From positions 32,001 to 96,000 of IMG/VR virus record IMGVR_UViG_3300045988_170760: 64,000 bases of DNA, one strand, 5' to 3'. Under the pieces are notes generated by a model, which saw only the letters and a program-made list of their open reading frames with translations, had not been told where the DNA came from and ran no database searches. Origin of the DNA: a virus. Both the position numbers and the translations under genes were made by a program. Positions 4,531 through 32,253 of the stretch are shown here, in pieces. The stretch's first letter is position 1; every line of letters starts with the position of its first letter.

Positions 4531-4984
4531 AAATGGTGAAATAAAAAAAGGAGATGTTTTATTTTTTGATACAAATAAATCCAGAAAAAATGAAATAGAA
4601 TATGACGGAGAACATTTTATTGCAAAGTGGACTATTAATAAATTAGACTTTTTAGAAATTTATAGTTTAGAAGAAGTAATGGATATGGACTTCAAATTAT
4701 ATGAGACAGTAACTATAGGAAACTTAGAATTGAGAGGCACTGATTTTGCAAGGCATGAGAACAGCCCATTTATGAATACGGCTGATACTTTGGAGATTGT
4801 TATAAAAGAAGAGATGTATTGCAGAACAATTGGATATTGGATGATGACTGAAATGGGATATGATTTTAGGTTTGTTGGTGATAGATTTTTGACAGAGGAT
4901 ATAGATATTTATGATTTATATGATTTAATAGAAGAAGGTCAAAAAATAACACAACAAATGTTTAAGGAGAAAAATAATGGATAG
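4499..4984 (+). CDS. hypothetical protein
   Basis: 161-aa ORF with TGGAGG upstream. Confidence 0.7.
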   Translation: MRIEEVILKIRNGEIKKGDVLFFDTNKSRKNEIEYDGEHFIAKWTINKLDFLEIYSLEEVMDMDFKLYETVTIGNLELRGTDFARHENSPFMNTADTLEIVIKEEMYCRTIGYWMMTEMGYDFRFVGDRFLTEDIDIYDLYDLIEEGQKITQQMFKEKNNG

Positions 4985-5103
4985 GTATTGTAAAGAATGT
5001 GTATATTTTCCTTGTATGAGAGAAGAATGTGATATATTTAAAGGACATTGTAATTATGGAAAATCAATTGTTACATTTGTTATAGAAGAACTTGCAAAGG
5101 AGA

Positions 5104-5520
5104 ATGGGTATAATGAATAGACCATCTTATATGAAAATTGGATATTGTAAAGGATATTGCAAAGAAACTAAGGAATGGATATATGGCTGGCATTGGACAG
5201 ATACACCATATGTTTGTTTTTATAATGGAGAGAAAATCAGGCATTTTATAAGAGTTCAAGTTAATTATGATTGGAATTTGACTGAACAAAGAGATTATGA
5301 AGTTGAGCCTGAAAGTATAGGTTATTATATTGGAAGAAATGATAGTAATAACATTCCAATGTTTTTAGGTGATAAGGTACATTTTACTAAGAATAAAAAA
5401 GACTATGAAGGTAAAATAGGGTACAATGTAGAAACTGCGGCTTATTGTATATTAGGAAATCCTTATGGAATAATAGTAGATTTTAGTAAGTTATCTAATA
5501 TAGAAATAAAAGATATTTAA
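5104..5520 (+). CDS. YopX-like protein (start 5104 or 5113)
   Basis: The C-terminal pattern ESIGYYIGRNDSNNIPMFLGDKVHF resembles the YopX family signature TIGqyTGlkDknGkeIyEGDiv. AAGGAG lies upstream. Confidence 0.45.
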   Translation: MGIMNRPSYMKIGYCKGYCKETKEWIYGWHWTDTPYVCFYNGEKIRHFIRVQVNYDWNLTEQRDYEVEPESIGYYIGRNDSNNIPMFLGDKVHFTKNKKDYEGKIGYNVETAAYCILGNPYGIIVDFSKLSNIEIKDI

Positions 5521-5658
5521 TAAAATAAATATCTTTTAAGACATAATGCTAGGAAGCATTGAGTTTACTAGCATTAAAAAATGAACTCGAAGATAATATG
5601 GAATTAAATGTAGTTAAGCTTCGAGTTCAATAAAATAAATATATGGAGGTAATAATAA

Positions 5659-6159
5659 ATGATTATTTTATTTGATATGAACAAAGAAATGTGTGATGCC
5701 TGGAACAAAGAATTTAAAGACTGTAATGATGTAAAGGTATTAAATATAAAACTTGACGAATTACAACCTGTAGATTATTTAGTAACAGCAGGTAATAGTT
5801 ATGGAATAATGAATGGTGGTATAGATTTAGCAGTAAGAAATTTGTTTGGAACAAGATTACAAGATAGGGTACAATGGGGTATTATAAGAAAATATAAAAA
5901 ATTATATTTACCTGTAGGAGATAATATAGTAGTTTATGGAAATAATAAATATAAAAATGTTATTTATGCACCTACTATGGAATTCCCAAAATTTATTTCT
6001 AAAGATTGTATATCTAAAATATTTTTAAATTGTTTATTAACAGCTAAGAATGGAAACATAGCATGTTGTGGTTTGGGAGCATTAACTGGAGGGCTTACTG
6101 TTACTACAGTAGCACAGGAAATGAAATTAGCATATAATAAATTTAAAAAAATAAATTAA
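5659..6159 (+). CDS. macro-domain (ADP-ribose binding/hydrolase) protein
   Basis: Motifs VTAGNSYGIMNGGIDLA, IYAPTM and GLGALTGG match the macro-fold nucleotide-binding loops. GGAGGT lies upstream. Confidence 0.55.
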   Translation: MIILFDMNKEMCDAWNKEFKDCNDVKVLNIKLDELQPVDYLVTAGNSYGIMNGGIDLAVRNLFGTRLQDRVQWGIIRKYKKLYLPVGDNIVVYGNNKYKNVIYAPTMEFPKFISKDCISKIFLNCLLTAKNGNIACCGLGALTGGLTVTTVAQEMKLAYNKFKKIN

Positions 6160-6179
6160 AATCGAAAGGATGATATATA

Positions 6180-6374
6180 ATGGATAGTTATGTAACTATA
6201 GAAAAAGAAGAAATATATGATATCTTATGTGGTTGTGGATTGATGACTATTTATACTAAAGAATATGGTTCATTAGAAATGACTGATGAAGATAGTATTA
6301 TGGAGGATTTTATTCCAGCAGTAGTAGACTATATCAATGACAAATTAGATAATACGAGATTATTTTTAGAATAA
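6180..6374 (+). CDS. hypothetical protein
   Basis: 64-aa ORF with AAAGGATG upstream. Confidence 0.6.
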   Translation: MDSYVTIEKEEIYDILCGCGLMTIYTKEYGSLEMTDEDSIMEDFIPAVVDYINDKLDNTRLFLE

Positions 6375-6377
6375 GTA

Positions 6378-6406
6378 TTGACATTGAATATAAAATATGG
6401 TATAAT
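6378..6406 (+). promoter_or_regulatory. consensus sigma70-type promoter
   Basis: TTGACA at 6378-6383, a 17-nt spacer ending in TGg, then TATAAT at 6401-6406. This is a perfect -35, extended -10 and -10. Confidence 0.7.
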
Positions 6407-6431
6407 AAATCAAAGAAGGAGGATAAAATAT

Positions 6432-6647
6432 ATGGATTTTGTAAAATTAATAATATATCTTAATGACGGAGTAGTTCAAGTAAATATAAGTGAAGAAATG
6501 TCAAGAAATCTTTCTACCGCAGTTAAAGATAAATCAGAAGATAAATTACGAGAATATTTTCATAATTTAGAGGATACACTTTCAGGTAAAAAGATTGATA
6601 TAGAACTAGATGATTTAAAAGGATTTGAATTTAAGTTAGGCAAGTAA
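6432..6647 (+). CDS. hypothetical protein
   Basis: ATG 6432 follows AGGAGGA. The track start at 6378 lies inside the promoter and is rejected. Confidence 0.65.
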   Translation: MDFVKLIIYLNDGVVQVNISEEMSRNLSTAVKDKSEDKLREYFHNLEDTLSGKKIDIELDDLKGFEFKLGK

Positions 6648-6821
6648 TACTATAATACTCCTTAATTAGGATATTATAGTGGGGTGATAATGTGTGTGAT
6701 GACAAAATTTCTAATGCTTGCTACAATTGTCCGTTTTTTATACAAAGTTGTTCATTTTGTCAATTAAATGATGAATATATAGATGATTGTATAGATGTAG
6801 TTAAGGAGTTGTATAATAATT

Positions 6822-7928
6822 ATGAAGTTGAAAATTATAGAATTTATGAAAAATCATAAGAACTGGGAAGAATTACTAACTAAAAAACCATATTGTTTAA
6901 AAGTTAATAGGCATAATGGATATATTTTATTGAAATATGACCAAATACATTCTGATTTTTCTTTAGATATTGTTAAAGAAGCTAGGGGAATTATAATAAA
7001 AGAAGAATGTTATAAGGTAGTATGTTTTCCTTTTATTAAATTTTTTAACATAGATGAAACTTATGCAGACAAAATAGACTGGAATACAGCAAAAGTACAG
7101 GAAAAAATAGATGGCTCATTAATTAAATTATGGTGTGACGAAAAAAATGGAATAAAAACATGGAATGTATCTACAAATGGATGTATAGATGCTTTTGCTT
7201 GTGATTTAGGTACTGATATATGTCCCTATAAAACTTTTGGGGAATTATTTATGTCCGTTTTTAATTTTAGAACTTTTCAAAAAATGAACCCAAACTATAC
7301 TTATATGTTTGAATTAGTATCTCCTTATACAAAAATTGTAGTAGATTATCCCAGAACAAAAATATATCATTTAGGAACTAGGGATAATATTAGTGGAAAA
7401 GAGTTAGAAGAAGATATAGGTGTCACAAAGCCAAAACTATATCCATTAAAGACTGAGGAAGAAATTAGAGAAACAGCAAATAAGTTACCTTTCAATGAAG
7501 AAGGTTATGTTGTAGTAGACAAAAATTATCATAGAGTAAAAGTTAAATCTCCAGCTTATGTTAATGCACATAGGTTAATTAATAATAATATAATAAATAC
7601 AGTAAAGGTACTTGATTTAATTATACAAAATGAGCAAGAAGAATTTTTATCTTATTTTCCTGAATATAAAAATGTATTTAAAGACATAGAAAGAAGATAT
7701 TTGAATTTTAGAAAAAGATTAAAGACAATAGAGGAACGCATACTAAAATTGAAAAAGAAAGCTAAAGATAGAAAAGATTTTGCTATTAAGTTAATAAAAA
7801 GAATGCCAGATTATAAAGAAATGGGTTTTATGCTTTATGATGATAAAATAAAAAATTATGAAGAATATTTGAATAATTTAACTACTAAAAAAATTATAGA
7901 AGGGATAGAAAGATATGAAAACATATGA
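6822..7928 (+). CDS. ATP-dependent RNA ligase, T4 Rnl1-like
   Basis: Nucleotidyltransferase motifs are present in order: I EKIDGSL, III/IIIa YMFELVSP, IV EEGYVVVD, V HRVKVKSPAY. Confidence 0.7.
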   Translation: MKLKIIEFMKNHKNWEELLTKKPYCLKVNRHNGYILLKYDQIHSDFSLDIVKEARGIIIKEECYKVVCFPFIKFFNIDETYADKIDWNTAKVQEKIDGSLIKLWCDEKNGIKTWNVSTNGCIDAFACDLGTDICPYKTFGELFMSVFNFRTFQKMNPNYTYMFELVSPYTKIVVDYPRTKIYHLGTRDNISGKELEEDIGVTKPKLYPLKTEEEIRETANKLPFNEEGYVVVDKNYHRVKVKSPAYVNAHRLINNNIINTVKVLDLIIQNEQEEFLSYFPEYKNVFKDIERRYLNFRKRLKTIEERILKLKKKAKDRKDFAIKLIKRMPDYKEMGFMLYDDKIKNYEEYLNNLTTKKIIEGIERYENI

Positions 7929-8115
7929 AAAGCTTTATGCTGTAAGAGAAAAGAAAACAAAAAAATTAATTAGTAAAAGACATTCTAATCCATTTTTTAC
8001 TTACAAAAGAAATGCTGAAAGTCAAATAGAAGAAATGGAGAGCCCATATTGGGGATATAAAGAAGGAGAATTAGAAATTGTTACTTTTAGATTAGAGGAG
8101 ATAGAATATGAATAA
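7915..8115 (+). CDS. hypothetical protein
   Basis: 66-aa ORF bridging the ligase and kinase genes, overlapping both. Confidence 0.55.
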   Translation: MKTYEKLYAVREKKTKKLISKRHSNPFFTYKRNAESQIEEMESPYWGYKEGELEIVTFRLEEIEYE

Positions 8116-9040
8116 GTTTTATATGATAGTAGGTTTACCTGGTTCTGGTAAATCAACTATTAGTAATGAATTGAATGGAGAGGTTTTTTCTTCTGATGCT
8201 TTAAGGAAAGAATTATGGGGTGATGAAAATACTCAAGGCGATAATACTTTATTGTTTAATGAACTTCATAAACGTATAGAAAAAGGATTAAAAGAGGGGA
8301 AAAATTGTATATATGATGCAACTAATATTAATGCTAAAAAAAGAATACAATTTTTAAATAAAATAAAAAATATAAAATGTGAAAAAATTTGTATATTAGT
8401 AGCAACAGATTTTAATGTATGTTTACAAAGAAATAATTTAAGGGAAAGAAAAGTTCCATATGAAGTAATTAAGCGAATGTATTTTAATATTGATATTCCT
8501 CAATATAGAGAAGGATGGGATAAGATTATTATAAAAAGGACACAAGATGAGATGAACGATTATGATATATTTAAATTTGTAGATTATTTAGAAACAATTA
8601 ATCATGATAATCCTCATCATTTACTAACAATAGGAGGACATATTCAGGCAGTTGTAAAATATATAATGGATAATTATCAATTTAAATTTGCAGGAGATAT
8701 AGAAAGATTAGAATGTTTATTAAGAGCAGCTTTATATCATGACATTGGCAAAAAGATTACTAAAACATTTATTAATAGTAAAGGAGAAAAAACAGAAGTA
8801 GCTCATTATTATAATCATGAGAAAGTATCTGCTTATATGTATATAATGTATGAACATACAGAAGAATTAAAAGATGTAGATAAAATTCTTTATATAGCTG
8901 ATTTAATTGGACTTCATATGAAAATGCATTGTTATAATGGTGATAAAGAAAAAGCACATGAAAGAATAAGAAAGTTGGTAGGACAGAGAGAATTTGAAGA
9001 TTTATGTATTTTAAATGAAGCTGATATTATTTGTGGGTAG
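8108..9040 (+). CDS. bifunctional polynucleotide 5'-kinase / HD-domain phosphoesterase (Pnk-HD)
   Basis: N-terminal P-loop GLPGSGKST with a T4 Pnk-like layout. The C-terminal HD domain shows NPHHLLTIGGH, ALYHDIGK and HYYNHEK. Confidence 0.7.
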   Translation: MNKFYMIVGLPGSGKSTISNELNGEVFSSDALRKELWGDENTQGDNTLLFNELHKRIEKGLKEGKNCIYDATNINAKKRIQFLNKIKNIKCEKICILVATDFNVCLQRNNLRERKVPYEVIKRMYFNIDIPQYREGWDKIIIKRTQDEMNDYDIFKFVDYLETINHDNPHHLLTIGGHIQAVVKYIMDNYQFKFAGDIERLECLLRAALYHDIGKKITKTFINSKGEKTEVAHYYNHEKVSAYMYIMYEHTEELKDVDKILYIADLIGLHMKMHCYNGDKEKAHERIRKLVGQREFEDLCILNEADIICG

Positions 9041-9049
9041 GAGGATAAA

Positions 9050-17943: not shown

Positions 17944-19014
17944 ATGGCAAGAAAAGCAGTAAAAAGAACGAAAAAAGCTGTAAAAAAACAGGAAGATGAA
18001 TTAGTTCAATGTGTTTCTTGTGGTAAGTTTAAACTTAAAAAAGATTTTTATATAAGTTATAATGAAATGCATTTGAATGGAGTATTACCTTATTGTAAAA
18101 CTTGCATAAAAAAGATGTGTAATGACAAGTTTAATCAGTTAGATAAAGAAAAAACATTAAGAATGTTAAGAACTATTGATAGACCGTATATACATGCTAT
18201 GTATGAAAAAGCTGTTGCTAAAGGTGGAGCAAATGCAATAGGTACATATTTAAGATTAATTAACTTACAACAATATAGAGATAAAAAATGGATGGATGGA
18301 GATTTAGATATGTTAGATGAAAAATCAGCTAATATAAAACCTCCTCTTACTGAAATAAAAAATGTAGAGCCTATAAAAACAGAGATAGAAAAATTTGAAG
18401 ATTTTGAGGTTACTAACGATATAATTGCTTTGTTTGGAACAGGTTATACAGATGAAGAATATTTTCATATGTGGAATAAATATCAGTTTTTAAGTGCAAA
18501 TTATACTGAACAAACTAATATGCATACAGAAGCATTGGTAACATATGTAAGATATAAAGTAAAAGAAGAAATGGCAGTTGCAGCAGGTAAAGCTACAGAG
18601 GCTAAGACTTGGGGAGAACTAGCCATGAAGCAAGCTGAAAGGGCTAAAATTAATCCTAATCAATTTAGTAAAGCAGACTTACAAGGTGGGTTAACAACGA
18701 TAGGAGAAATAGCTCAAGCAGTAGAACAAAATGTAGATATAATACCAGTATTACCACAATTTAAATTTAGACCAAATGATGCGGTAGACTTTTGTATATG
18801 GTGTTATATTAATTATGCAAGAGACTTAGAAGGTAAACCTCTAGTAGAATATAAGGATGTTTATAAATTTTATGACAGAATGAGAGAAGATTATATAACT
18901 AGTACAGGCGACCCTTATGGAATATTTGATGAAGACCCTACTTTAAATAATAGAGAAAAAGTAAAGCAGTTTATTCAACTTCCTGATGAATATTATGAGG
19001 AAGGTGAAAACTAA
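17944..19014 (+). CDS. putative terminase small subunit (position-based)
   Basis: Lies immediately upstream of, and overlapping, terL. It has a basic N-terminus plus a CxxC...CxxC zinc ribbon. ATG 17944 is preferred over the TTG at 17884. Confidence 0.45.
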   Translation: MARKAVKRTKKAVKKQEDELVQCVSCGKFKLKKDFYISYNEMHLNGVLPYCKTCIKKMCNDKFNQLDKEKTLRMLRTIDRPYIHAMYEKAVAKGGANAIGTYLRLINLQQYRDKKWMDGDLDMLDEKSANIKPPLTEIKNVEPIKTEIEKFEDFEVTNDIIALFGTGYTDEEYFHMWNKYQFLSANYTEQTNMHTEALVTYVRYKVKEEMAVAAGKATEAKTWGELAMKQAERAKINPNQFSKADLQGGLTTIGEIAQAVEQNVDIIPVLPQFKFRPNDAVDFCIWCYINYARDLEGKPLVEYKDVYKFYDRMREDYITSTGDPYGIFDEDPTLNNREKVKQFIQLPDEYYEEGEN

Positions 19015-20825
19015 TGGCATATATTAAAAACTTTGAAACGGAAGCCCACAAACATAGTAGGATGCAGTTTGCACCTAAAAGTGAATATGAAGCATGGGAT
19101 AATCCAACAGTAAAAGTACGTAAAAATGGTAAACAGAGTTTTTTTGAAGAACATATTAAGCAATATACAGAATTAATAAGTTATTTCAGATGGTATCCTG
19201 ATTTATTTTTAGATATGATAAGACCTAAGACAGGTGGGGTAAATTTACATTTTGACCAAAGAGTATTCTTAAGATGCATTTGTAGATTTATTAGTATATA
19301 TGGTGTATTTCCTAGAGGTTGGTCAAAAACATGGTCTGAGGTAGTGTCAATGTTTATAATAGCTGTTTTATATCCAGGAATAACTATGTCGTTAACAGCA
19401 CAAACAAAGGCTAATGCGGCAGAGTTACTTAAGGATAAACATGATGAGATAACAAGACAATATCCTTGGTTCAAGACAGAAATATTAAAAGTAAGAACAG
19501 CAAAAGATGACTGTGAAATATTTTTTGTGAATGGTTCAAGAATAGATGTGTTGGCAAATGCACAAAGTAGTAAGGGACAAAGAAGAAATAGAATACAGAT
19601 AGAAGAAAGTGCCTTAATAGATAATTTCACATTTGAAGATGCTTTAAAGCCTATTGTCGAAATAGGTAGAACAACTCAAGGTAAGATAGGTATATCTGAC
19701 CCACAAGAATTAAATCAACAAATAAATTTCTTTACGACATCAGGATTTAGAGGCAGTGATGAATGGGCTAGAAGTGTTCAAATGTATAAAGATATGACAG
19801 ACTTAAAAGGAGATATTGTTTTAGGTTCAGGTTGGATGCTTGGTTGCTGGATGGGAAGAGGTTCTAATAAGGGGCAAATATTAAAAAAGAAAAGAGATAC
19901 GGGCTCAGTAGCTTTTGCTAGAAACTATGAAGAAAAATGGGTAGGAGCTGTAGATAATCAACTTGTAGATATAAAGAAACTATTGCGAACAAGAACATTA
20001 ACGGAACCTGTTTTAGATAATAAAGATAATAAAAGGGAGATTATCTTAGGTGTAGACGTAGCTCGTTCTGCAAATAACGCTAACAATAAAACTGTAATTA
20101 GTGTGGTAGAAGAGCATCACGTAGACAATGGATTGATAAGGCAATTAGACTTAATTAATATGTTTTTGGTATCAAATCAATTAAATTTTACAGCACAAGC
20201 TTGTTTAGTTAAAAGAGTACAAAAACAATATAATGCAAAAATTGTAGTTGTTGATACAAATGGATTAGGTAGTGGTTTAAGAGATGAATTGTTAAAGCCT
20301 AATATAGATGTTGAAACAGGTGAGACATATAATGCATGGGATGCTGTAAATGGAGAAATAAAGTCTGACTATAGAGATGCAGAACCATTATTGTTTGCTT
20401 TAAATTCACAAAATAAAGATGAAACAAAGAAAGATGGAAGAATAAATAGTTATGCTATTATTAATTTTATAGATTGTGTAGATGGTCAAAAATTAAGATT
20501 ATTAGAAGAAAGAAGAGATAACGGTATAAATTTAGGGGATATAGAAGAAGTTAAAGCTTTTATACCTTTTGAGCAAACAAATGCTCTTGTAGATGAAATA
20601 TCTAATTTAAAATTAAAACATTTAACTAATGGAGAGGTAACAGTAGAGAAAGTTTTAAATAAAATAGATAAAGATAGATTTTCAAGTTTAATGTATGCAT
20701 TATGGTGGGCAATGACTTATGATAATGCATTAAAAACAGATAACAAAGATTTGGTTATGACAATAGCGAAAATGAACGGTCTCGGAAGCAGAAGAGGAAG
20801 TTCATTGAATAATTTATTTAAATAA
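19014..20825 (+). CDS. terL: terminase large subunit
   Basis: 603 aa. Walker-A-like PRGWSKT, a Walker-B-like RIQIEES, and nuclease-domain patterns ILGVDVAR and VVVDTNGLG. Confidence 0.75.
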   Translation: MAYIKNFETEAHKHSRMQFAPKSEYEAWDNPTVKVRKNGKQSFFEEHIKQYTELISYFRWYPDLFLDMIRPKTGGVNLHFDQRVFLRCICRFISIYGVFPRGWSKTWSEVVSMFIIAVLYPGITMSLTAQTKANAAELLKDKHDEITRQYPWFKTEILKVRTAKDDCEIFFVNGSRIDVLANAQSSKGQRRNRIQIEESALIDNFTFEDALKPIVEIGRTTQGKIGISDPQELNQQINFFTTSGFRGSDEWARSVQMYKDMTDLKGDIVLGSGWMLGCWMGRGSNKGQILKKKRDTGSVAFARNYEEKWVGAVDNQLVDIKKLLRTRTLTEPVLDNKDNKREIILGVDVARSANNANNKTVISVVEEHHVDNGLIRQLDLINMFLVSNQLNFTAQACLVKRVQKQYNAKIVVVDTNGLGSGLRDELLKPNIDVETGETYNAWDAVNGEIKSDYRDAEPLLFALNSQNKDETKKDGRINSYAIINFIDCVDGQKLRLLEERRDNGINLGDIEEVKAFIPFEQTNALVDEISNLKLKHLTNGEVTVEKVLNKIDKDRFSSLMYALWWAMTYDNALKTDNKDLVMTIAKMNGLGSRRGSSLNNLFK

Positions 20826-31245: not shown

Positions 31246-32253
31246 ATGGCAATAGATAAAGGTTTAGCTTTAGTATCTGTAGCTGATGTATTGTTCTTTA
31301 ATCCTGTGACAGATGCTTATATTGGAGAAGGTTTAGCTTTAACAAACTCTACTTTAACACAAGAAGTTCAAAGTATTGAACAAAGAGGAGGATATCTAAA
31401 CGCATTATTATTCGATATCAAGCATAGTAAAACTGTAACAGTAGAATTAGAAAGTGCAACATTTAAAATGGAATATTTAGCATTCCAAACAGGAACACCA
31501 ATTGTTTCAGGTTTATCAGGAGTTTATAAATTTGATGAATGTGTTTCTTTCCAAAATGGTGTTGGAGAAACAGCGGATACTCCACTAGGAAATGTATATG
31601 TAAGAATGCCAAATGGTGCAGTAAAATCAATTGTACCAACAGGAAAAAGTGTAGATATTGGTATGGCAGAATTTAGTGGTTCTTTACAAGTTGTATATCA
31701 ATATAATGCACAAGTCGACCAAATCACAATTGACACAAAAACACAACCATTAACTGTAAAAGCTGTTATGAGAGTGCATGTTTTAAGTCAAGATGGTATC
31801 GAAGGATATATCCAAATTATAATTCCTAGATTAAAATTTAATGGTAGTATTTCACTAACATTAACATCAGATGCAGTGTCTACATTTGGTATTGGTGGAA
31901 CAGCACAAGAATATGCTACAGATTGTGGAGAAAGTTATTATGCAGATGCAAAATATATTAATACAGAGGATACAGCTGTTATTCCAGTAGAAAGTGTTGT
32001 AGCATCTCCAAACGTAATGACATTCTCAATGGCAGGAGTTCATGAAGCTACAGCTAATGTTATTGGTGTAAGAAGTACTCCATATTCTAATGTTCAATTA
32101 GATAATAGTGCATTAACATTTGAAAGTACAGACCAAGAAACAGCAACTGTAGATGCTACTGGTAGGATTACTGGTATTAAACAAGGTGAAACAACTATTA
32201 AAGTAACTTACCAAGGATTACAAGACCTTATTTCAGTTAATATTGGTGAATAA
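31246..32253 (+). CDS. major tail protein with C-terminal Big_2 Ig-like domain
   Basis: Strong RBS AAAGGAGAG. The C-terminal ATVDATGRITGIKQGETTIKVTYQG is a Big_2-type motif. Position lies between the connector genes and the tape measure. Confidence 0.55.
   Translation: MAIDKGLALVSVADVLFFNPVTDAYIGEGLALTNSTLTQEVQSIEQRGGYLNALLFDIKHSKTVTVELESATFKMEYLAFQTGTPIVSGLSGVYKFDECVSFQNGVGETADTPLGNVYVRMPNGAVKSIVPTGKSVDIGMAEFSGSLQVVYQYNAQVDQITIDTKTQPLTVKAVMRVHVLSQDGIEGYIQIIIPRLKFNGSISLTLTSDAVSTFGIGGTAQEYATDCGESYYADAKYINTEDTAVIPVESVVASPNVMTFSMAGVHEATANVIGVRSTPYSNVQLDNSALTFESTDQETATVDATGRITGIKQGETTIKVTYQGLQDLISVNIGE

Follow-up and report, generated by a model that had tools for sequence, protein, structure and literature searches.

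Does the gene pair at positions 6822 to 9040 of a viral DNA stretch of 64,000 nucleotides (nt), which is positions 32,001 to 96,000 of the IMG/VR record IMGVR_UViG_3300045988_170760 and is called the window here, encode an RNA repair pathway, and is one of its two enzymes really built in an inverted domain order? The first gene encodes a putative RNA ligase. The second encodes a protein, here named Pnk-HD, in which a predicted polynucleotide kinase domain precedes a predicted HD-type phosphoesterase. The original prediction combined both genes with an upstream macro-domain gene and considered a connection to tRNA genes further downstream. All three open reading frames (ORFs) and all motifs quoted for them are present on the plus strand, and the three proteins match the Pfam families Macro, RNA_lig_T4_1 and AAA_33 plus HD, in each case above the gathering score. 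These homology signals are strong, and the motifs are no chance matches. We regard ligase and Pnk-HD as a two-enzyme phage RNA heal-and-seal cassette which probably mends cut tRNA, and by analogy to known systems we assign a probability of about 0.75 to this reading. The features are compiled in Table 1.

Pnk-HD is encoded by positions 8108-9040 of the plus strand and comprises 310 amino acids (aa). The P-loop motif GLPGSGKST is located at aa 9-17 (nt 8132-8158). The Pfam family AAA_33 is matched by aa 6-127 with an E value of 1.8e-20, and among the PHROGs the protein matches polynucleotide-kinase families. The kinase half is similar to the kinase domain of Clostridium thermocellum Pnkp (CthPnkp, 4gp7; E 1e-11), whose residues D38 and R41 align with D30 and R33. 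An AlphaFold2 model built with 35 homologues reached a predicted local distance difference test score (pLDDT) of 94 and a pTM of 0.92. A Foldseek search with this model returned 4gp6/4gp7 first (E 1e-9, rmsd 1.7-2.0 Å), followed by mammalian PNKP, PSTK and T4 Pnk. In the 35 homologues, which are 45-77% identical, the kinase residues G9, S13, G14, K15, S29, D30, R33, D70, R79, R112 and R114 are invariant. The active site would be formed by the P-loop (G9-T17), the catalytic residue D30, R33, D70 and the lid residues R112/R114. The best matches of this half are bona fide polynucleotide kinases.

The whole-model Foldseek search gave matches to kinase domains only, and for the HD half a profile was compared with the PDB sequences instead. 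The motifs of this half are HDNPHH (aa 166-171), GGH (aa 176-178), HDIGK (aa 211-215) and NHE (aa 236-238). PF01966 is matched at aa 198-275 of the full protein (E 8e-6) as well as by the isolated half (E 5e-6), and NCBIfam assigns it to TIGR00277 (HDIG) and to the HD region of CCA tRNA nucleotidyltransferase. The family profile matches the HD domain of the Aquifex CC-adding enzyme (3wfp) with an E value of 4e-7. In the same 35 homologues H171, H178, H211, D212, G214, K215, H233, H237, H270 and D306 are invariant, and the ligand set H...HD...H...H...D is complete (H178, H211-D212, H237, H270, D306). By these comparisons the closest relatives of the half are the HD domains found in class II tRNA nucleotidyltransferases. 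The CCA-adding enzyme of E. coli has an HD domain with 2',3'-cyclic phosphodiesterase and phosphatase activity. No HAD or PNK3P match was obtained for Pnk-HD with the Pfam and NCBIfam profiles, and the C-terminal half is of the HD and not of the DxDxT type; it thus takes the place of the HAD phosphatase of T4, as had been proposed. Taken from sequence and model, Pnk-HD is predicted to be a polynucleotide kinase domain fused to an HD phosphoesterase. The gene should be annotated as bifunctional polynucleotide kinase / HD phosphoesterase and not as "AAA family ATPase" or "predicted kinase".

The original prediction had stressed the inverted order of the two domains. Both halves are found in the phage HD-Pnk profile phrog_6931 in exchanged positions: the kinase half (aa 2-143) aligns with positions 185-339 (E 8e-27) and the HD half (aa 162-283) with positions 22-134 (E 7e-9). 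The PNK of phage RM378 (Rm378p110, 361 aa) contains according to a profile scan the HD domain at aa 35-94 and the kinase at aa 189-325, and Pnk-HD matches it in swapped order with E values of 1e-13 (kinase) and 0.007 (HD). Because the two halves match phrog_6931 and RM378 PNK in swapped order, the inverted order is a true permutation. A kinase-then-HD order of the RM378 enzyme, with which the order of Pnk-HD would already have been known, is rejected, since the scan of Rm378p110 from the genome gave HD-then-kinase. An N-terminal HD domain is also described for the HD-Pnk of Runella slithyformis (PMC6097658) and for the PNKP of Deinococcus radiodurans (PMC1997131), and the 3'-phosphatase activity of RM378 PNK was assigned to its HD domain (PMC1997131). 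Judged from these alignments and descriptions, the domain order of Pnk-HD is reversed relative to every characterised HD-Pnk.

The permutation stands, but it is not peculiar to this locus. The kinase-first order is widespread, and proteins of this kind form a large family that is already annotated. A tblastn search of deposited phages revealed 37 records with a collinear full-length Pnk-HD (30-35% identity over 99-100% of the query), 36 from Bacillus phages and one from a Lysinibacillus phage. They are annotated as 'polynucleotide kinase', 'AAA family ATPase' or 'HD-domain containing protein', and often 'tRNA ligase' or 'RNA ligase' stands under the same match. The protein of phage Skywalker has the same Pfam layout. 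In a metagenome protein collection 3077 matches were found at E <= 1e-5; with an identity of at least 45% there are more than 100 full-length clusters, many of them located on contigs of 100-170 kb. A scan with one genome per species gave 27 full-length loci in genomes and metagenome-assembled genomes (MAGs), almost all from Bacillota (Acetivibrio, Ruminococcus, Oscillospiraceae, Faecalimonas, Cytobacillus, Lysinibacillus, Paenibacillus, Saccharibacillus, Erysipelotrichaceae). Two of the 27 belong to MAGs binned as Bacteroidales/Bacteroidaceae.

The ligase contains the motifs KIDGSL (aa 95-100, nt 7104-7121), EGYVV (aa 227-231) and KVKS (aa 240-243). In the alignment the residues of motif I (K95 in KIDGSL), motif III (E164 in MFELV), motif IV (E227-G228 in EGYVV) and motif V (K240/K242 in KVKS) correspond to K99, E159, E227-G228 and K240/K242 of T4 Rnl1. 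The match to RNA_lig_T4_1 (PF09511) reaches 43.9 bits (E 3.3e-11) at a gathering score of 28.3, and phrog_562 ('RNA ligase and tail fiber protein attachment catalyst') is matched over the profile positions 25-363 of 377 (E 1e-51). The T4 Rnl1 structures 2c5u and 5tt6 are matched over aa 36-323 with E values of about 2e-12. The similarity to the biochemically characterised RNA ligase 1 of Rhodothermus phage RM378 extends over the full length (aa 54-364, E 4e-19), and the ligase of the Tsamsa type is more distant (E 6e-10). The C-terminal helical domain of the Rnl1 type is present, as the alignments reach residue 325 of 375 in T4 and residue 434 of 438 in RM378 Rnl1. The essential residues specific for Rnl1 are reportedly R54, K75, F77 and K119 of the T4 enzyme, and equivalents of the first three are kept (ARGI, IKFFN). 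By these comparisons the protein is, in line with the original prediction, a member of the Rnl1 family and not a DNA ligase, but it is no close equivalog of the T4 protein.

The linkage of Pnk-HD to RNA ligases is conserved. In the phages Skywalker and PK-3 the end of an Rnl1-type ligase ORF meets the start of Pnk-HD in overlapping ORFs, and the two ORFs also overlap directly in the relatives L005 and L012. In L013, a relative of 171 kb, the ligase lies 2.4 kb upstream of Pnk-HD. A +1 frameshift near 4982-5004 divides the ligase of the 120-kb relative L011 (4714-5800) into aa 1-97 and, in the next frame, aa 90-367; the gene may be a pseudogene, the assembly may be in error, or the frameshifting may be programmed. 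Among the 27 genome loci, ten contain an Rnl1-type ligase within 4 kb or less of Pnk-HD. The neighbours were scanned for ten of the remaining 17 loci; a PF09414-type RNA ligase is adjacent in four of these ten, and in one the neighbour is a calcineurin-like phosphoesterase. Pnk-HD adjoins a PF09414-type RNA ligase instead of Rnl1 in L023, L029, L034 and L037 (Bacillota and Bacteroidales-binned), and two of these ligases carry the PHA02142 OB-fold domain. Pnk-HD evidently swaps its ligase partner between at least two RNA ligase families, which argues that it prepares RNA ends for ligation. Two further observations concern L013. Its Pnk-HD is followed by a Thg1-like protein (7352-8176), a 3'-5' polymerase of tRNA 5'-end repair, and by a block of NAD salvage genes (8605-12656) for an isochorismatase-type nicotinamidase, a phosphoribosyl pyrophosphate (PRPP) synthetase-like protein, NAMPT and NAD synthase.

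Phages classically answer host anticodon nucleases with RNA heal-and-seal systems, whose healing modules vary (HAD, calcineurin-like, 2H, HD). In the pathway proposed for the window a tRNA would first be cut by a ribonuclease of the host, such as an anticodon nuclease, which would leave a 2',3'-cyclic phosphate or 3'-phosphate together with a 5'-OH. The C-terminal HD domain of Pnk-HD would then remove the 2',3'-cyclic or 3' phosphate and produce a 3'-OH, and the N-terminal P-loop kinase would move a phosphate from a nucleoside triphosphate onto the 5'-OH. Finally the Rnl1-type ligase would reseal the break via ligase-AMP and AppRNA. This chemistry, the tRNA substrate and the role in counter-defence are suggested by analogy with T4 Pnkp/Rnl1, RM378 PNK and the HD-Pnk of Runella, and a tRNA cut by a host defence nuclease is the likely substrate. 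For the phages Thrax and Tsamsa the pair of PNK and RNA ligase was already read as a T4-like answer to PrrC (PMC9703825).

Several points weigh against this picture. In our literature search the term 'Pnk-HD' was not found, nor any biochemistry or explicit mention of a kinase-first HD enzyme. In the ligase, K119 of T4 Rnl1 corresponds to an Asn within a gapped stretch, and the NCBIfam equivalog TIGR02308 is matched with 65.8 bits at a cut-off of 242. No host anticodon nuclease was identified. According to the title of Munir and Shuman 2017, HD-Pnk is said to heal DNA as well as RNA ends. The PNKP of Deinococcus, which is of the HD-kinase type, is discussed as a possible DNA-repair enzyme, and DNA versus RNA repair is left open (PMC1997131). 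Weak similarity to Cas3 HD nucleases was moreover seen for the HD half (E 1e-5 to 0.05).

Pnk-HD could accordingly be an enzyme that mainly heals DNA ends (breaks with 5'-OH and 3'-phosphate) in replication, recombination or repair, with an incidental RNA ligase neighbour. Besides the Deinococcus report, this is consistent with the description of Runella HD-Pnk as DNA/RNA end-healing and with the Runella ligase, which did not seal the standard substrates tested (PMC6097658). In the Tsamsa-like phages the second gene after Pnk-HD encodes an ATP-dependent DNA ligase, and genes of nucleotide metabolism (a deoxynucleoside monophosphate kinase and a DUF7768 protein) are neighbours in the window. 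However, the conserved partner is an RNA ligase, either Rnl1 or PF09414 where Rnl1 is missing, and the ORFs often overlap. The HD domain is closest to that of tRNA nucleotidyltransferases, and in L013 a tRNA repair enzyme, the Thg1-like protein, is encoded nearby. We consider a main role in DNA healing as unlikely.

It is very unlikely that one or both domains of Pnk-HD have a different activity, the HD half as a Cas3-like nuclease or the kinase half on a tRNA-linked or small-molecule substrate as in PSTK or KTI12. The Cas3 similarity mentioned above points in that direction, and PADLOC gave weak Cas3-HD and kinase matches for Pnk-HD; its profiles gave no match for the ligase or the macro protein. 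In NCBIfam the kinase half is matched by PSTK (2.4e-17) about as well as by bacterial Pnkp (3.7e-17), and in Pfam KTI12 is matched too. The best matches in sequence and fold are nevertheless bona fide polynucleotide kinases with aligned catalytic residues, HD-Pnk (phrog_6931) and the CCA enzyme contain the HD domains closest to the C-terminal half, and the gene is linked to RNA ligases.

Table 1. Features of the window in and around the putative RNA repair cassette.
Feature	Position	Strand	Basis or remark
Macro-domain protein, 166 aa	5659-6159	+	PF01661, phrog_2613, AlphaFold2, Foldseek
Promoter-like site	6378-6406	+	TTGACA-17-TATAAT with extended -10 TG; only 12/12 sigma-70 match in 5000-11500
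Two small ORFs between promoter-like site and ligase	6432-6859	+	ORF list; L003 gene calls
Putative Rnl1-family (T4 RnlA-like) ATP-dependent RNA ligase, 368 aa	6822-7928	+	PF09511, phrog_562, T4 Rnl1 structures, RM378 Rnl1
66-aa ORF overlapping ligase stop and Pnk-HD start	7915-8115	+	ORF call; L011 homologue
Pnk-HD, N-terminal half: predicted P-loop polynucleotide 5'-OH kinase domain	8108-8590	+	AAA_33, 4gp7, Foldseek, phrog_6931
Pnk-HD, C-terminal half: predicted HD (HDIG-type) metal-dependent phosphoesterase	8591-9040	+	PF01966, TIGR00277, 3wfp, phrog_6931
tRNA-Met(CAT), interrupted	14950-15528		Insertion 14984-15491, 508 nt, in anticodon loop directly after anticodon
Endonuclease ORF of the insertion	15064-15480		PF11645
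tRNA-Pro	15538-15614		
tRNA-Thr	15664-15738		

The macro-domain gene was predicted to lie about 0.7 kb upstream, and its end is indeed found 663 nt before the ligase start. The protein matches PF01661 (E 8.8e-7, above the gathering score) and phrog_2613 (E 1e-34), and its AlphaFold2 model (pLDDT 95) shows a genuine macro fold. The best Foldseek match is the yeast ADP-ribose-1''-monophosphatase Ymx7 (YMR087W, 1njr; TMq 0.80, E 1e-9), and the next are the macro domains of DarG (5m3i, TMq 0.68), Af1521 and YmdB. The residues N46, G53, G54 and D56 (GGxD) are invariant, G140 and G144 nearly so, the second glycine-rich loop is conserved, and a homologue with 87% identity comes from a Clostridia MAG. 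Ymx7/Poa1-type and DarG macro domains share the fold and the ADP-ribose-binding motifs with the window protein at an identity of only about 20%, and unlike them it belongs to a small phage-restricted clade (phrog_2613). Derivatives of ADP-ribose are its probable substrates, and neither Tpt1 nor DarT nor any other partner was identified for it.

Membership of this gene in the cluster could not be maintained. A single module of three proteins, in which the macro protein clears by-products of NAD-dependent RNA repair such as ADP-ribose-1''-phosphate or reverses the ADP-ribosylation of the same RNA targets, would agree with Ymx7 as best fold match, with the location on the same strand close to the ligase without a terminator-like site in between (none was found in 5000-11500), and with reviews which tie Macro domains to NAD-dependent RNA repair (PMC7824862). 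But no macro gene is present near Pnk-HD in L005, L011, L012, L013, Skywalker, PK-3 or 80 genome loci. Precomputed Pfam calls record no Tpt1/KptA within 10 kb, and the genes downstream are structural. A perfect promoter-like site separates the macro gene from the ligase, and the Rnl1-type pathway leaves no 2'-phosphate that needs Tpt1. Such a module is quite unlikely and the macro gene is treated as an independent neighbour.

The promoter-like site is possibly the start of the transcription unit of the predicted cassette. The total of such sites in the region is not above chance, and therefore it is a hint only. The two small ORFs that follow, of about 71 aa (6432-6647, as called in L003) and of 55 aa (6692-6859, Cys-rich and overlapping the ligase start), have no significant family matches in Pfam and PHROGs. 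No family match was found for the 66-aa ORF between ligase and Pnk-HD either. It is 42% identical (E 5e-15) to an ORF of 72 aa at the same position in L011 and absent in L005 and L012. Its conservation at the same place in L011 indicates that it is probably a real small protein, which could be an accessory factor of the cassette.

The tRNA cluster was predicted about 6 kb downstream; the split tRNA-Met gene starts about 5.9 kb from Pnk-HD, and a possible link of the cassette to it had been suggested. In that case a protein endonuclease would cut out the insertion, and Pnk-HD and the ligase would heal and join the exon halves in the manner of eukaryotic or archaeal splicing. The position of the insertion in the anticodon loop directly 3' of the anticodon fits to this idea. 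Furthermore, the Rfam group I intron model (RF00028) gave no match at E <= 1, nor at E <= 10 on a stretch of 596 nt, and the endonuclease ORF takes up all but about 90 nt of the insertion. On the other hand, the product of this ORF is a PD-(D/E)XK endonuclease (PF11645, E 3.5e-17) in the family of the homing endonuclease I-Ssp6803I (2ost, E 0.006), an enzyme encoded within a tRNA-fMet gene that is interrupted by a self-splicing group I intron, where it resides. The splice sites obey the group I rules, with a 5' exon that ends in U and an insertion that ends in G, and a P1 of 5 bp (UUCAU/GUGGA) can be drawn.

The comparison with L003 speaks against the link. This metagenomic contig of 121.8 kb (ENA ERZ27310145) encodes a protein 99% identical to Pnk-HD and has the same cassette, and at the same place, between almost identical flanks, its tRNA-Met gene (16848-16922) is intact. 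This identifies the insertion as a recent mobile element on which the cassette does not depend. Among the many phages and prophages with the cassette, no examined one shows such an interrupted tRNA. Splicing of this tRNA by the cassette is extremely improbable; if true, it would be an enzymatic tRNA splicing pathway in a bacteriophage. A 19-nt pattern of the junction was found in IMG/VR in one unrelated contig only. A homologue of the insertion endonuclease (29% identity) overlaps an annotated tRNA-Ile in the T5-like Pectobacterium phage My1 (JX195166.1, 30091-30438). Insertions with endonucleases of the PF11645 family may thus recur in phage tRNA genes.

The window has a G+C content of about 26% and nearly all its genes are on the plus strand. 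L003 and L014 encode a YonO-like RNA polymerase of the RdRP family and homologues of YonJ, YonG, YonD, YonB, YomX, YomV and YomU, and the phage is therefore SPbeta-like, i.e. related to Bacillus phage SPbeta. It is about 122 kb in size, of low G+C content and from a metagenome; its host is a gut bacterium and probably belongs to the Clostridia. No close relative was found by megablast of positions 5000-12000 of the window against deposited phages. A protein of 919 aa (11381-14140) with the motif DFDGD matches the Pfam family RdRP (PF05183, E 2e-12); it appears to be a YonO-like RNA polymerase of the single-subunit two-barrel kind, which is typical of SPbeta-like phages, and is shorter (467-551 aa) in L005, L011 and L012. 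The 603-aa gene at 19014-20825 corresponds to a 973-aa gene of L003 (20398-end) with Intein_splicing and LAGLIDADG matches. The intein is apparently present in L003 and not in the window, while the tRNA insertion is present in the window and not in L003. The N-terminus common to both genes is only 75% identical, which suggests mosaicism. The DUF7768 protein at 9875-10555 (E 1e-36; PHROG 'nucleoside 2-deoxyribosyltransferase') has an N-terminal extension of 115 aa of no assigned function. The protein of 170 aa at 10853-11365 has an HNH-like signature (H-H...N...H) and no profile match.

The locus shows that the HD/kinase healer also exists in a kinase-first order, which many phages and prophages of Bacillota carry. 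Work on such a member would close a gap among the catalogued end-healing enzymes and could yield a compact kinase/phosphoesterase reagent. It would not alter the understanding of heal-and-seal systems.

Among the known systems, bacterial Pnkp/Hen1 repair provides with CthPnkp the closest solved structure for the kinase half (about 30% identity). In contrast to Pnk-HD, CthPnkp combines its kinase with a calcineurin-type metallophosphoesterase and a C-terminal ligase-like domain of its own, and no Hen1 partner is present in the window. The T4 pathway is, like the window cassette, of phage origin, and phage tRNA genes are found nearby in the window. T4 Pnkp has the same layout as Pnk-HD, a kinase followed by a phosphoesterase, and its kinase fold is matched by that of Pnk-HD; the ligase is likewise of the Rnl1 family with all motif residues. 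The phosphoesterase of T4 Pnkp is, however, HAD (DxDxT) and that of the window HD, and the identity between the window ligase and T4 Rnl1 amounts to only about 20-25%. The T4 genes pseT and rnlA are presumably not adjacent, unlike the pair in the window.

The HD-Pnk enzymes of RM378, Runella and Deinococcus consist of the same two modules, each homologous to one half of Pnk-HD, and differ by the order HD then kinase. The HD-Pnk gene of Runella adjoins or overlaps a polynucleotide ligase gene, with the ligase first as in the window (PMC6097658), and RM378 also encodes the Rnl1 ligase to which the window ligase is similar over the full length. The same collinear Pnk-HD with an Rnl1-type ligase directly upstream is found in the Tsamsa-like Bacillus phages (Tsamsa, Skywalker, Thrax1-5, PBC2, PK-3). 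These belong to the Joanripponvirinae, whereas the window derives from an SPbeta-like phage, probably of gut Clostridia. In comparison to their gene pair the window has the 66-aa ORF in addition, and the Tsamsa-like phages also encode a nucleotidyltransferase, two genes before the ligase, and have genes for a DNA ligase and another RNA ligase in the vicinity. The locus is thus an ordinary member of a widespread cassette, and its predicted healer is a domain-permuted variant of HD-Pnk.

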